Shown piece after piece: positions 578-49,361 of a stretch of 64,000 bases of DNA (its first letter is position 1; each line of letters begins with the position of its first letter). Below the pieces are notes generated by a model. The model searched no databases. It saw nothing but the letters and a program-made list of their open reading frames with translations, and was not told the origin of the DNA. The stretch lies in assembly GCF_016026235.1 (NCBI RefSeq), contig NZ_CP065613.1; one strand, given 5' to 3'. Both the position numbers and the translations under genes were made by a program. This DNA comes from Escherichia coli. Its GTDB lineage: Bacteria; Pseudomonadota; Gammaproteobacteria; Enterobacterales; Enterobacteriaceae.

Positions 578-2452
578 ATGAAAGGACAAGAAACTCGTGG
601 TTTTCAGTCAGAAGTGAAACAGCTTCTGCACCTGATGATCCATTCTCTCTATTCCAATAAAGAAATCTTCCTGCGTGAGCTTATCTCTAACGCCTCCGAT
701 GCGGCGGACAAGCTGCGTTTCCGTGCGCTATCTAACCCGGACCTGTACGAAGGTGATGGCGAACTGCGCGTTCGTGTCTCTTGCGATAAAGACAAGCGCA
801 CGCTGACCATCTCCGATAACGGCGTGGGGATGACCCGCGACGAAGTGATTGACCATCTGGGGACTATCGCTAAATCCGGTACCAAATCATTCCTCGAATC
901 CCTGGGTTCTGACCAGGCGAAAGACAGCCAGCTGATCGGTCAGTTTGGTGTTGGTTTCTACTCTGCGTTTATCGTGGCCGACAAAGTGACCGTGCGTACT
1001 CGCGCGGCAGGCGAAAAACCAGAAAACGGCGTCTTCTGGGAATCGGCTGGCGAAGGTGAATATACCGTTGCCGACATCACCAAAGAAGATCGTGGTACTG
1101 AAATCACCCTGCATCTGCGTGAAGGCGAAGACGAGTTCCTCGATGACTGGCGCGTGCGTTCCATCATCAGCAAATACTCCGACCATATCGCGCTGCCGGT
1201 AGAGATCGAAAAACGCGAAGAGAAAGACGGCGAAACCGTTATCTCCTGGGAGAAAATCAACAAAGCGCAGGCGCTGTGGACTCGTAACAAGTCGGAAATC
1301 ACCGATGAAGAGTACAAAGAGTTCTACAAACACATCGCCCACGACTTTAATGATCCGCTGACCTGGAGCCACAACCGCGTTGAAGGTAAGCAGGAGTACA
1401 CCAGCCTGCTGTACATCCCGTCCCAGGCTCCGTGGGATATGTGGAACCGTGATCATAAACACGGCCTGAAACTGTACGTCCAGCGTGTGTTCATCATGGA
1501 CGACGCAGAACAGTTCATGCCGAACTATCTGCGCTTCGTGCGTGGTCTGATTGACTCCAGCGATCTGCCGCTGAACGTTTCCCGTGAAATCCTCCAGGAC
1601 AGCACGGTAACGCGTAACCTGCGCAATGCGCTGACCAAGCGTGTGCTGCAAATGCTGGAAAAACTGGCGAAAGACGACGCGGAAAAATACCAGACCTTCT
1701 GGCAACAGTTTGGCCTGGTACTGAAAGAAGGTCCGGCGGAAGATTTCGCTAACCAGGAAGCGATCGCCAAACTGCTGCGTTTTGCTTCTACTTATACCGA
1801 TTCTTCTGCGCAGACCGTGTCTCTGGAAGACTACGTTTCCCGCATGAAAGAAGGGCAGGAGAAAATCTACTACATCACTGCAGACAGCTATGCGGCAGCG
1901 AAGAGCAGCCCGCACCTGGAACTGCTGCGTAAGAAAGGCATCGAAGTTCTGCTGCTTTCCGACCGCATCGATGAGTGGATGATGAACTATCTGACTGAGT
2001 TCGACGGTAAACCGTTCCAGTCGGTGTCTAAAGTTGACGAGTCGCTTGAAAAACTGGCTGACGAAGTTGATGAGAGCGCGAAAGAAGCGGAGAAAGCACT
2101 GACTCCGTTCATCGACCGTGTGAAAGCCCTGCTCGGCGAGCGCGTGAAAGATGTCCGTCTGACTCACCGTCTGACCGATACGCCAGCGATCGTTTCGACC
2201 GACGCGGACGAAATGAGCACTCAGATGGCGAAACTGTTCGCTGCGGCGGGCCAGAAAGTGCCAGAAGTGAAATACATCTTCGAACTGAACCCGGATCACG
2301 TACTGGTGAAACGTGCGGCAGATACTGAAGATGAAGCGAAGTTCAGCGAGTGGGTAGAACTGCTGCTGGATCAGGCGCTGCTGGCAGAACGCGGCACGCT
2401 GGAAGATCCGAACCTGTTTATTCGTCGTATGAACCAGCTGCTGGTTTCCTGA
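578..2452 (+). CDS. htpG: Hsp90-family molecular chaperone HtpG
   Basis: 624-aa ORF with a GHKL ATPase N-terminal domain; sequence recognised as E. coli HtpG; heat-shock promoter upstream. Confidence 0.97.
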
Positions 2453-2456
2453 TGTC

Positions 2457-2495
2457 ATGCCGGATGACCTTTGTGTCATCCGGCATTTTTCTTTT
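2457..2495 (+). terminator. Rho-independent terminator of htpG
   Basis: Perfect 11-bp stem (atgccggatga / tcatccggcat) with an 8-nt loop, followed by TTTTTCTTTTC, 5 bp after the htpG stop. Confidence 0.8.
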
Positions 2496-2560
2496 CATCA
2501 TCTGCACTTTCCGCAAATTATCTCGCCATTAACCGTTTCAGCCTCAGGTGCCTTTCTTGA

Positions 2561-3277
<717 letters not shown>

Positions 3278-3298
3278 TTCGAAAGCGCGCACGGACAG

Positions 3299-3345
3299 TC
3301 CCCTCGCCCCCTCGGGGAGAGGGTTAGGGTGAGGGGAACAGGCCC
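3299..3345. repeat. GC-rich C-tract/G-tract element containing a G-quadruplex-type motif (GGGG-AGA-GGG-TTA-GGG-TGA-GGGG at 3314-3336)
   Basis: Read directly from the sequence; four G-runs of at least 3 separated by 3-nt loops, preceded by a complementary C-rich run. Confidence 0.5.
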
Positions 3346-3371
3346 GCACAAGCAAACTTATCAGCAATCTC

Positions 3372-3396
3372 AGGCCGGATATTCATTCGGCCTTTT
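3372..3396 (+). terminator. Hairpin (aggccg / cggcct) followed by a T-run, downstream of adk
   Basis: 6-bp GC stem with a 10-nt loop followed by TTTT. Confidence 0.5.
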
Positions 3397-3512
3397 ACAA
3401 AAACCTCAATCTGCGCTATTCCTTTTTCTGATTTGACCTCTCACAGCAATTAGTTCTTCTTCCTCACTTTTCCGCTACAATTATCAACAAGTTGAATCGA
3501 TAAGAGGCGGTA

Positions 3513-4475
3513 ATGCGTCAGACTAAAACCGGTATCCTGCTGGCAAACCTGGGTACGCCCGATGCCCCCACACCTGAAGCGGTAAAACGCTATCTGAAAC
3601 AATTTTTAAGCGACAGACGCGTGGTTGATACCCCACGGTTGTTATGGTGGCCGTTGCTGCGCGGCGTGATTTTGCCGCTGCGCTCGCCGCGTGTGGCGAA
3701 GCTGTACGCCTCGGTCTGGATGGAAGACGGCTCGCCGCTGATGGTTTACAGCCGCCAGCAACAGCAGGCGTTGGCACAACGTTTACCGGATACGCCCGTA
3801 GCGCTGGGCATGAGCTACGGCTCGCCATCACTGGAAAGCGCCGTCGATGAACTCCTGGCAGAGCATGTAGATCATATTGTGGTGCTGCCGCTTTATCCGC
3901 AATTCTCCTGTTCTACGGTCGGTGCGGTATGGGATGAACTGGCACGCATTCTGGCGCGCAAACGTAGCATTCCGGGGATATCGTTTATTCGTGATTACGC
4001 CGATAACCACGATTACATTAATGCACTGGCGAACAGCGTACGCGCTTCTTTTGCCAAACATGGCGAACCGGATCTGCTGCTGCTCTCTTATCATGGCATT
4101 CCCCAGCGTTATGCAGATGAAGGCGATGATTACCCGCAACGTTGCCGCACAACGACTCGTGAACTGGCTTCCGCATTGGGGATGGCACCGGAAAAAGTGA
4201 TGATGACCTTTCAGTCGCGCTTTGGTCGGGAACCCTGGCTGATGCCTTATACCGACGAAACGCTGAAAATGCTCGGAGAAAAAGGCGTAGGTCATATTCA
4301 GGTGATGTGCCCGGGCTTTGCTGCGGATTGTCTGGAGACGCTGGAAGAGATTGCCGAGCAAAACCGTGAGGTCTTCCTCGGTGCCGGCGGGAAAAAATAT
4401 GAATATATTCCGGCGCTTAATGCCACGCCGGAACATATCGAAATGATGGCTAATCTTGTTGCCGCGTATCGCTAA
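3513..4475 (+). CDS. hemH: Ferrochelatase
   Basis: 320-aa ORF recognised as E. coli HemH. Confidence 0.95.
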
Positions 4476-5431
4476 AGCTGAGCGGTAAAGAACTGAGCGC
4501 CGTCGCGAAGAGCCTCGTCGGCGGTTTTCATCATCCGTGAATAATGCAAAAAGGCGTGCAGCGTGCCTGGGTAGAGTTTGAACTCACAGGGCTGCTGATG
4601 CGCCGCTAACGTCTGGTAAAGCAGACGGCTGTCATCCAGCAGCGGATCGAACTCCGCCCCGGCAATAAAACAGGGCGGAACTTCGCGAGTGAGATCATTA
4701 TTAAACAGACAGTAATACGGCGACTCGCGGTCCGCGTCGTTGCTTAAATACGCCTCTTCATACATCTGCAAATCCTGTTGCGTTAAGCCATCCCAGACAC
4801 CGCCCAACAGACGACGAGTCACGGAATCCCGTAATCCGTAAAGCCCATACCACAGCAAAACACCCGCAATTTTACCGCAATCGATCTGTTTATCACGCAA
4901 CCACAACGCACTGGCGAGCGCCAGCATGGCACCTGCGGAATCACCGGCAAAGCCAATGCGGGACATATTGATTTGATAATCCTCCGCCTGTTGGTGGAAA
5001 TGACAACAAGCAGCCACAATTTCCTCTATCGCTTGCGGAAAACGTGCTTCAGGTGAAAGGGTGTAATCAATACCAATCACCGTACATTGGCTGTAGCTTG
5101 CCAGCAGGCGCATGATGCGATCGTGGGTATCGAGATTGCCGAGAATAAAACCGCCTCCATGCAAATAAAATAGCGTCGCTGGGCTATCTGGCTGCGGACA
5201 AAAGAGACGTGTTTCCACCTGCCCATATTTTGTTGGAACCATGTAAGCTCTGGTTGCCATTTCTGGAGCGCCCGCATTCCAGAATCGGCGCTCAAGCGTG
5301 TAATACTGTCGTTGCTCAGCAATCGTTCCCGTTGCGGGCCAGGGCGGTAAATCAGGCTGAAGAGTATTCACAACGGTCTTCATTTCAGCAGAAATAAGGT
5401 CCAGAACAGGTAATTTGTTTTCCGGCTTCAT
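4472..5431 (-). CDS. aes: Acetyl esterase (alpha/beta hydrolase, HSL family)
   Basis: 319-aa ORF with HGGG and GDSAG esterase motifs; its 3' end overlaps the hemH stop by 4 bp (convergent). Confidence 0.93.
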
Positions 5432-48101: not shown

Positions 48102-49361
48102 ATGTTTACATCAGTGGCGCAAGCCAATGCTGCGGTTATCGAACAAATTCGTCGCGCTCGTCCACACTGGCTGGATGTGCAACTGGCTTCTTCACTTATC
48201 AGCGAACTACACCCGGGCAAAACACTGCTTCACGCCGGGCCGCCAATGCGCTGGCAGGAGATGACCGGACCCATGAAAGGGGCGTGCGTGGGCGCATGTC
48301 TGTTCGAAGGTTGGGCGAAAGATGAAGCGCAGGCGCTGGCAATACTGGAGCAGGGGGAAGTGAACTTCATTCCTTGTCACCATGTGAATGCCGTCGGGCC
48401 AATGGGCGGTATTACTTCTGCCAGTATGCCGATGCTGGTGGTCGAGAACGTGACCGACGGCAACCGGGCGTACTGCAACCTCAACGAAGGTATCGGCAAA
48501 GTGATGCGTTTTGGCGCTTACGGCGAAGATGTCCTGACTCGCCATCGCTGGATGCGCGATGTGTTAATGCCAGTATTAAGCGCGGCGCTGGGGCGCATGG
48601 AGCACGGTATCGATCTCACGGCGATGATGGCGCAGGGCATTACCATGGGCGATGAGTTCCATCAACGCAATATTGCTTCCTCAGCACTGTTAATGCGTGC
48701 GCTGGCCCCACAAATTGCTCGCCTCGATCATGATAAACAGCACATCGCGGAAGTGATGGATTTCCTCAGCGTGACCGATCAGTTCTTCCTCAACCTTGCG
48801 ATGGCTTACTGCAAGGCGGCGATGGATGCTGGCGCGATGATCCGCGCAGGCAGCATCGTCACGGCTATGACCCGCAACGGCAATATGTTCGGGATTCGGG
48901 TAAGCGGGCTGGGCGATCGCTGGTTTACTGCGCCTGTAAACACTCCGCAAGGTCTGTTTTTCACCGGCTTCTCGCAGGAGCAGGCGAACCCGGATATGGG
49001 CGATAGCGCGATTACCGAAACCTTTGGTATCGGAGGTGCGGCAATGATCGCAGCGCCTGGCGTAACGCGCTTTGTCGGTGCGGGTGGCATGGAAGCCGCC
49101 AGAACGGTATCTGAAGAGATGGCGGAAATTTACCTTGAACGCAATATGCAGTTGCAGATCCCTGGCTGGGATTTCCAGGGCGCGTGCCTGGGGCTGGACA
49201 TTCGTCGCGTGGTAGAAACCGGCATTACGCCACTCATCAATACCGGTATCGCCCATAAAGAGGCGGGGATCGGGCAGATTGGCGCAGGCACCGTGCGGGC
49301 ACCGCTGGCGTGTTTTGAACAGGCCCTGGAAGCACTGGCTGAAAGTATGGGGATTGGTTGA
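48102..49361 (+). CDS. ylbE: DUF1116-family protein YlbE (intact)
   Basis: Uninterrupted 419-aa ORF 9 bp after fdrA. Confidence 0.85.

Follow-up and report, generated by a model that had tools for sequence, protein, structure and literature searches.

The GC-rich motif between adk and hemH of Escherichia coli is one copy of the BoxC dispersed repeat

BoxC elements, also named PIT elements, TMECO or HPG1, are dispersed repeats of Escherichia coli, and they were reportedly the subject of earlier work by Bergler and Bachellier in the 1990s and by Hoyne and Maher in 2000. The REP/BIME (PU) elements resemble them as short GC-rich imperfect palindromes that are dispersed, intergenic and often located in 3' UTRs. 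REPs are known to have a partner, the RAYT transposase, and to exert effects on mRNA stability. Their sequence is unrelated to that of BoxC, which is three-armed, with one C-rich and two G-rich arms, and not a simple palindrome. BoxC also shares with MITE-like repeats (ERIC/IRU, Correia/NEMIS, RUP) the properties of being non-coding, structured, multi-copy and lineage-specific in its presence.

Petrillo et al. 2008 recognised BoxC among the known stem-loop families of E. coli. Holder et al. 2015 (PMC4666352) then identified TMECO both with the 'BoxC' repeat described in the 1990s and with Hoyne and Maher's 'PIT elements', and gave the consensus CCCTCNCCCN3-6GGGNGAGGGN3GGGNGAGGG. According to their review of earlier work, BoxC has no known partner enzyme or function. 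The published survey spoke of 262 proteobacterial genomes. According to Kaplan et al. 2016 (PMC5100583), BoxC accounts for 18 of the 52 canonical quadruplex-pattern sites of E. coli K-12, so that quadruplex scans of enterobacterial genomes will keep re-finding it. We looked in the literature for functional studies of TMECO, BoxC or HPGQ that came later, and found none past 2016.

We analysed a stretch of 64,000 nucleotides of E. coli DNA (contig NZ_CP065613.1), hereafter the window, in which the region of interest has the gene order htpG-adk-hemH-aes. This region is co-linear with MG1655, and adding 494542 to a window position gives the NC_000913.3 coordinate. The DNA is not that of K-12 MG1655 itself: over the first 5,450 bases of the window we counted 60 mismatches with MG1655, about 1.1%, and none in the adk-hemH spacer (3203-3632). 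An initial annotation, made from the sequence alone, had reported just past adk a GC-rich element with a telomere-like quadruplex motif, and had suspected that it might belong to a small GC-rich intergenic repeat family, which it could not name with confidence.

The element reads CCCCTCGCCCCCTC at 3300-3313, followed by GGGGAGAGGGTTAGGGTGAGGGG at 3314-3336. This last 23-mer occurs only once in the window, and 100 dinucleotide shuffles gave 0 matches to it, even with up to 3 mismatches. Using a regular expression, we found the BoxC/TMECO consensus, 5'-CCCTCNCCC-N3-6-GGGNGAGGG-N3-GGGNGAGGG-3', at window 3301-3335, that is MG1655 497843-497877. Both published catalogues list this copy down to its own coordinates. 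Table 1 of Holder et al. 2015 (PMC4666352) has it as TMECO no. 6, of type 'A mm', at MG1655 497843-497878 on the + strand, which corresponds to window 3301-3336; Kaplan et al. 2016 (PMC5100583) number it HPGQ 15, a member of group HPG1, and place it between adk and hemH with its midpoint at 497867, 38 nt past adk and 177 nt ahead of hemH. The consensus match and the two catalogues thus give the suspected repeat family its name: the GC-rich motif 3' of adk is one copy of BoxC, already known, and it should be labelled as a BoxC repeat copy in annotations and not as a new regulatory quadruplex. When Rfam covariance models were run against window 2400-4600 with E <=10, only chance matches came out. 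The best of them, Antizyme_FSE on the minus strand, reached 19 bits where the gathering score is 40 (E 0.87) and was rejected as a chance match, being under the gathering threshold.

The features of the locus are collected in the table below. The 36-nt core, made of the C-rich arm and two mirror-related G-rich segments, starts 23 nt past the adk stop codon and ends 35 nt ahead of the adk terminator. When the 15 type-A copies were aligned, short conserved flanks appeared on both sides of the core, extending the adk unit to about 73 bp: the 5' flank is A-rich and then reads ..GCGCACGGACAGTC, and the 3' flank reads AACAGGCCCGCAC. The type-A 5' flank ..GnGCnCGnACGGTC and the type-A 3' flank GAAnAn-GCCnGCA are both found at the adk copy. 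In its consensus, its type-A flanks, its intergenic site and its multi-copy distribution, the adk copy is the same as the described family, and we saw no structural difference.

Features of the adk-hemH region of the window, with window positions
Feature	Position	Strand	Basis or remark
adk coding sequence, stop TAA 3275-3277	2633..3277	+	as annotated in co-linear MG1655
Extended BoxC unit, type A	3278..3350	+	alignment of 15 type-A MG1655 copies with flanks
Long-allele-specific segment	3279..3435	+	BoxC and some 85 bp of single-copy sequence, in which the terminator lies; alignments
BoxC/TMECO core	3301..3336	+	consensus match and both published catalogues
C-rich arm CCCTCGCCCC	3301..3310	+	together with C3300, pairs with the third G segment in the modelled fold of lowest energy
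Middle G segment GGGGAGAGGG, G-tracts 1 and 2	3314..3323	+	
Loop 2, TTA, defines type A and yields TTAGGG	3324..3326	+	
Third G segment GGGTGAGGGG, G-tracts 3 and 4	3327..3336	+	
adk intrinsic terminator	3372..3396	+	stem 3372-3380/3385-3393, then U-tract; Term-seq 3' ends
Conserved hemH upstream (promoter) region	3436..3512	+	common to both alleles and related genera; alignments
hemH coding sequence	3513..4475	+	

The genome-wide search for similar copies that had been proposed as a check was carried out with a 61-nt query. Of the 5,426 complete E. coli genomes, 5,408 contained matches, 77,446 places in all, and the number per genome had a median of 16 and a maximum of 27; BoxC is therefore a dispersed repeat, and this recurrence is what exceeds chance. 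In MG1655 we re-found 23 copies at 18 loci, at their published coordinates. The adk copy is intergenic, in the spacer that runs from the adk stop (3277) to the hemH start (3513), and the remaining MG1655 copies are likewise all intergenic. No consistent rule of orientation relative to the flanking genes was found at the 18 MG1655 loci, in agreement with Holder et al. 2015 (PMC4666352). Within the 64-kb window there is no further BoxC copy, and loosened G-tract patterns gave chance-level matches only.

We then considered the quadruplex motif itself. The G-rich part at 3314-3336 conforms to the canonical four-tract pattern G3+N1-7 and contains TTAGGG, exactly as first described. The window holds two sites of this pattern (3314-3336 and 48891-48913); 200 dinucleotide shuffles gave a mean of 0.86 sites, with at least two sites in 40 of the 200, and the count in the window is within chance. 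The second match, at 48891-48913 (+), reads GGGATTCGGGTAAGCGGGCTGGG.

The comparison with telomeres has some ground, since the adk BoxC, with GGGTTAGGG, has the four G3 tracts and the 3-nt loops of human telomeric (TTAGGG)n, and Kaplan et al. (PMC5100583) likened the K+ CD signature of the sister motif HPG2 to that of the telomere sequence. Unlike the human sequence, BoxC has a single TTA loop and no tandem repeat, carries in cis a complementary C-arm that competes with the quadruplex, and is without a terminal or replicative role; in a third of the K-12 copies the TTA is replaced. At the adk copy TTAGGG occurs only once, the other loops being AGA and TGA, and no tandem (TTAGGG)n units are present. 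Loop 2 is TTA in 15 of the 23 MG1655 copies and CCG, TCG or CTG in 8, and it varies freely in other taxa, among the matches listed. Because loop 2 differs in 8 of 23 K-12 copies, TTAGGG at this site is coincidental, and the telomere-like reading was rejected, loop 2 not being conserved in the family.

According to a first alternative, the motif would be a functional G-quadruplex, with three tetrads formed in the non-template DNA or in the adk mRNA and modulating the adk 3' end or hemH transcription; in a variant of this proposal, quadruplex and hairpin might alternate, as a 'G4-hairpin-duplex switch'. The canonical pattern with its 3-nt loops speaks for it, as does the fact that the G-rich strand is the sense strand of adk, but within the family neither strand is preferred relative to genes, and TTAGGG is not conserved. 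Taking these points together with the folding and transcript results below, we regard this alternative as very improbable.

The competing folds were compared by their modelled energies. As RNA, the BoxC core folds into a hairpin with a minimum free energy of -27.6 kcal/mol, in which the C-rich 5' part pairs with G-tracts; this pairing had been anticipated initially. The quadruplex of the G part alone reached -12.6 kcal/mol (ViennaRNA, quadruplex folding enabled), and when quadruplexes were allowed, the minimum-energy RNA structure of the core was still the hairpin. As the C-arm is always in cis and in RNA the hairpin leads by about 15 kcal/mol, this result weighs against a quadruplex in the transcript. 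With parameters for single-stranded DNA, the two folds are effectively tied, at -13.2 kcal/mol for the hairpin and -12.6 for the quadruplex, a near-equality that counts for the quadruplex alternative. By these model values the quadruplex is not the favoured fold, since the hairpin wins in RNA and the two tie in DNA; such models treat quadruplexes crudely and have no score for triplexes. The fold z-score of the 68-nt unit is -2.7 for RNA and -1.9 for DNA, and the complement strand of the adk BoxC also folds, at -23.2 kcal/mol. The 23 MG1655 copies give RNA hairpins between -17.5 and -27.6 kcal/mol, and that of adk is the most stable of all with both parameter sets; we found no mention in Holder et al. 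2015 and Kaplan et al. 2016 of the adk hairpin as the strongest of the 23.

The modelled pairing partners, compared over the 23 copies, fall into two registers that depend on arm position 6; the arms are otherwise almost invariant, and they are fixed by the search pattern. In the adk copy this position of CCCTCGCCCC is G, and the C-arm is predicted to pair with the third G segment as its Watson-Crick partner, through one G.U/G.T. The same holds for the other copies with G there, while in most of the copies with T at this position the C-arm is predicted to pair with the middle segment. In the triplex model of Holder et al. (PMC4666352), the middle segment is the Watson-Crick partner of the C-arm, with one G.A mismatch, and the third segment is the Hoogsteen strand. 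We saw no mention of two-register pairing in the sections read of Holder et al. 2015 and Kaplan et al. 2016. The G/T variants at arm position 6 recur in Roseateles and in one MAG, among the matches listed.

Holder et al. (PMC4666352) observed 18 imino signals in NMR of the single strand, which they read as an intrastrand triplex and not as a quadruplex, and NMR and CD showed a very stable triplex in single-stranded oligonucleotides, including type 'A mm', with a Tm of about 74 degrees C. In the presence of the complement a duplex formed. In vivo, DMS probing of another copy (TMECO no. 3) gave no N7 protection, and this accessibility of guanine N7 argues against triplex and quadruplex alike. 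In the work of Kaplan et al. (PMC5100583), the CD spectra of the sister motif HPG2 resembled those of a quadruplex in 100 mM K+ and those of a hairpin in Mg2+ or Li+, and addition of the complement gave a duplex; the K+ and Li+ forms melted at similar temperatures, 73 and 71 degrees C. The quadruplex described initially has its sequence pattern and the K+ signature of HPG2 on its side, and against it the NMR reading as a triplex, the missing DMS protection at another copy and the stronger hairpin in RNA. Altogether, its formation is weakly supported: it is a possible in vitro state of the isolated strand, and we would not expect it in the chromosome or in the adk mRNA.

The triplex of the single strand recalls H-DNA, or purine-motif triplexes, in that mirror-repeat G segments with a complementary C-arm give C.G*G and T.A*A/T triads, and in that NMR found it for BoxC (Holder et al., PMC4666352). 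Unlike H-DNA, it forms within one strand and is not extruded from a long homopurine duplex, and the same authors report no sign of it in duplex DNA or in vivo.

To locate the end of the adk transcript we used published Term-seq tables (Adams et al. 2021, PMC7815308). In three data sets, + strand 3' ends lie at MG1655 497939/497940, that is window 3397/3398, directly past a hairpin with its UUUU ending at 3396 (-13.2 kcal/mol, z -4.4). The same tables list no 3' end across the BoxC interval (MG1655 49784x-49790x). The terminator-like hairpin that had been noticed after the element is therefore real, by its fold z-score and by the mapped RNA ends, and BoxC is transcribed within the adk 3' UTR while termination takes place at this separate terminator. 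The mapping of adk 3' ends, which had been suggested as a test, accordingly leaves the proposed role of the element in 3'-end formation without support, and a quadruplex acting there finds none either. That the adk 3' end lies downstream of BoxC is a point of which we found no mention in Holder et al. 2015 and Kaplan et al. 2016. Between 3200 and 3560, a scan for consensus promoters and terminators returned nothing; the simple terminator scan missed the hairpin at 3372-3396 because its T-run is only 4 bases long. A further terminator-like hairpin, seen in the sequence only, lies just past the htpG stop at window 2457-2495 (+) and reads ATGCCGGATGAC-cttTgt-GTCATCCGGCAT, then TTTTTCTTTT.

These results bear on a second alternative, in which BoxC would work as a functional RNA hairpin of the 3' UTR, either as a REP-like barrier to 3'-to-5' exonucleases or in back-up termination or pausing, in replacement of an ancestral stem-loop. 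That BoxC is transcribed, the adk 3' end lying downstream of it, agrees with such a role, and so does the folding of both orientations (complement -23.2 kcal/mol). On the other hand, the BoxC hairpin does not have the form of an intrinsic terminator, being followed by AACAGGCCC with no U-tract, and earlier work found neither promoter nor terminator activity for BoxC (as cited by Holder et al. 2015, PMC4666352). The Term-seq tables (PMC7815308) also show no processed 3' end at the base of the BoxC hairpin, and many family members stand on the promoter side of genes or in divergent intergenic regions, where the role would be meaningless.

The history of the locus was examined from allele counts in the complete E. 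coli genomes and from alignments of the adk-hemH spacer, with relatives obtained through exact protein matches. A long allele, with BoxC, is present in 2,913-2,914 of the 5,426 genomes (about 54%), including K-12 and O111:H11. A short allele, that of O157:H7 among others, is present in 2,507 of the 5,426 (46%); instead of the 157 bp of window 3279-3435 it has 56 bp of unrelated sequence with a 12-bp hairpin of its own. To the left, the alleles part at 3279, in coincidence with the left edge of the extended BoxC unit, and the non-BoxC part of the long allele (3351-3440) is single-copy. E. albertii carries the short allele and E. marmotae carries the short-allele hairpin with a REP-like insertion, from which it follows that the short allele is ancestral and that the BoxC allele is a derived replacement. 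We found no mention of this derived 157-bp replacement allele, present in about 54% of the genomes, in Holder et al. 2015 and Kaplan et al. 2016. The ancestral post-adk hairpin, GCAGCAGAUCUGC-UUUC-GGGCAGGUCUGC, of -22 kcal/mol, was seen in O157:H7 (L122:458-485) and in E. albertii, with no obvious U-tract.

The hemH upstream region is identical in both E. coli alleles, and from about 3436 it is conserved also in Citrobacter, Leclercia and the other relatives aligned. The element had further been supposed to act on hemH transcription; this is unsupported, as 46% of E. coli together with the sister species E. albertii and E. marmotae are without BoxC and have the same promoter region, unchanged, which also counts against a functional quadruplex.

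Just past adk, the alleles and relatives differ in what they carry, and this slot is a hot spot of small-repeat turnover. REP-like elements, which here occupy the place of BoxC, were found in Citrobacter freundii, in a related metagenomic contig and in E. marmotae, and plain hairpins in Leclercia and another relative. The REP-like sequences, GCCTGATAAGCGCAGCG... and GCCGGATGGCGGCGTAAACGCCTTATCCGGCCTAC-like, lie just past the adk stop (L144:1038-1200, L146:67-294, L147:411-600). In all alleles and species examined, a strong stem-loop stands within about 25 nt past the adk stop, with -22, -21.7 and -19.4 kcal/mol against -27.6 for BoxC. This regular stem-loop near the adk stop speaks for the 3'-UTR hairpin role, and so does the presence of REP-like elements there in Citrobacter, E. 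marmotae and the related contig. Yet the long allele brought its own terminator, which makes BoxC dispensable for termination, and with the transcript data above we judge this role unlikely.

The same alignments bear on a third alternative, proposed by Holder et al., in which the C-arm and the middle and third segments would form a purine-motif triplex when the strand is transiently single-stranded, stalling replication or repair and causing local rearrangements, of which the adk-hemH indel polymorphism would be a consequence. Besides the NMR and CD data on single-stranded oligonucleotides, it draws on the observation that TMECO loci were more variable than control intergenic sites in 56 strains (Holder et al., PMC4666352), and on the spacer being dimorphic here, the alleles diverging exactly where the extended BoxC unit has its left edge. 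However, no triplex signal was obtained in duplex DNA or in vivo by the same authors, and BoxC is stable within the long allele, where the 61-nt stretch has at least 99% identity in 2,880 of 2,913 genomes. This stability may reflect recent ancestry or constraint. Moreover, the polarity of the change is a gain of BoxC and not a deletion caused by it, and the slot also turns over in taxa with REP and without BoxC, so that the variability may mark a permissive insertion site rather than instability caused by BoxC. We therefore give this alternative little credence.

The reading that we prefer, and that we consider probable, is that the adk BoxC is a passenger, one copy of a selfish or neutral structured repeat which sits in a permissive slot after a gene and folds as a hairpin in the transcript. 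BoxC would have arrived in one E. coli lineage within the 157-bp segment that replaced the ancestral post-adk hairpin. It would most likely be tolerated in this permissive 3'-UTR slot and would probably not be a dedicated regulator of adk or hemH, and we infer that it has no locus-specific function there. In chromosomal DNA it would be duplex almost always; in the adk mRNA it would form a strong hairpin, with the C-arm on a G segment, that outcompetes the quadruplex, and adk transcription would end at the hairpin downstream. The history of the locus, with an ancestral hairpin followed by the BoxC segment, and with REP in the relatives, favours a passenger over a driver of instability or a gene-specific regulator. 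Some points stand against this preference. The extraordinary conservation of the arms, in E. coli as in distant phyla, is difficult to reconcile with pure neutrality and suggests a recognition factor or structure-dependent propagation. In addition, BoxC occupies the usual position of the post-adk stem-loop, which leaves a small chance for a generic hairpin role in the 3' UTR.

The mobility of BoxC is inferred, since no clean empty site or target duplication is seen at adk-hemH. The allele alignments show a replacement, 157 bp against 56 bp, and the signature of a simple insertion was thus rejected. Looked at for filled and empty sites, target duplication and terminal inverted repeats, the locus lacks the marks of a MITE: unlike MITE-like repeats, the adk BoxC has no target-site duplication, clean empty site or partner transposase that we could find, and in E. 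coli the module stands singly, not in a pair.

For the wider distribution we scanned one genome per species with the TMECO consensus, and the figures that follow hold among the matches listed. The betaproteobacterium Roseateles (Mitsuaria) chitosanitabidus NBRC 102408 has at least 145 strict BoxC/TMECO copies (L010-L116), which exceeds the highest published number, 143 in Enterobacter asburiae. Directly after 118 of these 145 stands TCTTC. The copies form at least 27 strict inverted pairs, and at least 59 copies have a partner under relaxed matching. In the pairs, the third arms point outward and the interiors are variable (30-272 bp), often with short tandem repeats; the inverted termini are of about 48 nt, gagcccgAAGA-CCCTCACCCC...GGGGTGAGGG-TCTTcgggctc, and have a MITE-like appearance. 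No target duplication is visible around the Roseateles pairs. A Methylomirabilota MAG (L002-L009), from a non-proteobacterial phylum, has at least 13 three-arm copies with variable loops. Within E. coli and across distant phyla the arms are near-invariant and the loops variable, again among the matches listed.

The Roseateles modules, as terminal inverted repeats of roughly 48 nt around variable interiors, add to the likeness with MITE-like repeats, and the spread of the family is possibly MITE-like. More specifically, BoxC cores could be the terminal hairpin modules of a widespread MITE-like family, moved by a putative structure-recognising enzyme, for example a single-strand-specific HUH/Y1-type transposase, a proposal that we offer as speculative and rather doubtful. 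The inverted pairs motivate it and have no bearing on the verdict for the adk copy. If it were true, single copies of E. coli such as that of adk would be solo ends, and the two pairing registers of the C-arm, given by G or T at arm position 6, would belong to the geometry by which the element is recognised or cleaved. It would then explain the near-invariant arms and variable loops across Gammaproteobacteria, Betaproteobacteria and the Methylomirabilota MAG, as well as the abrupt changes of copy number between strains and the landing in permissive slots after genes. A few copies each were also seen in a Contendobacter MAG (L017-L019) and in MAG GL140 (L117-L121), among the matches listed.
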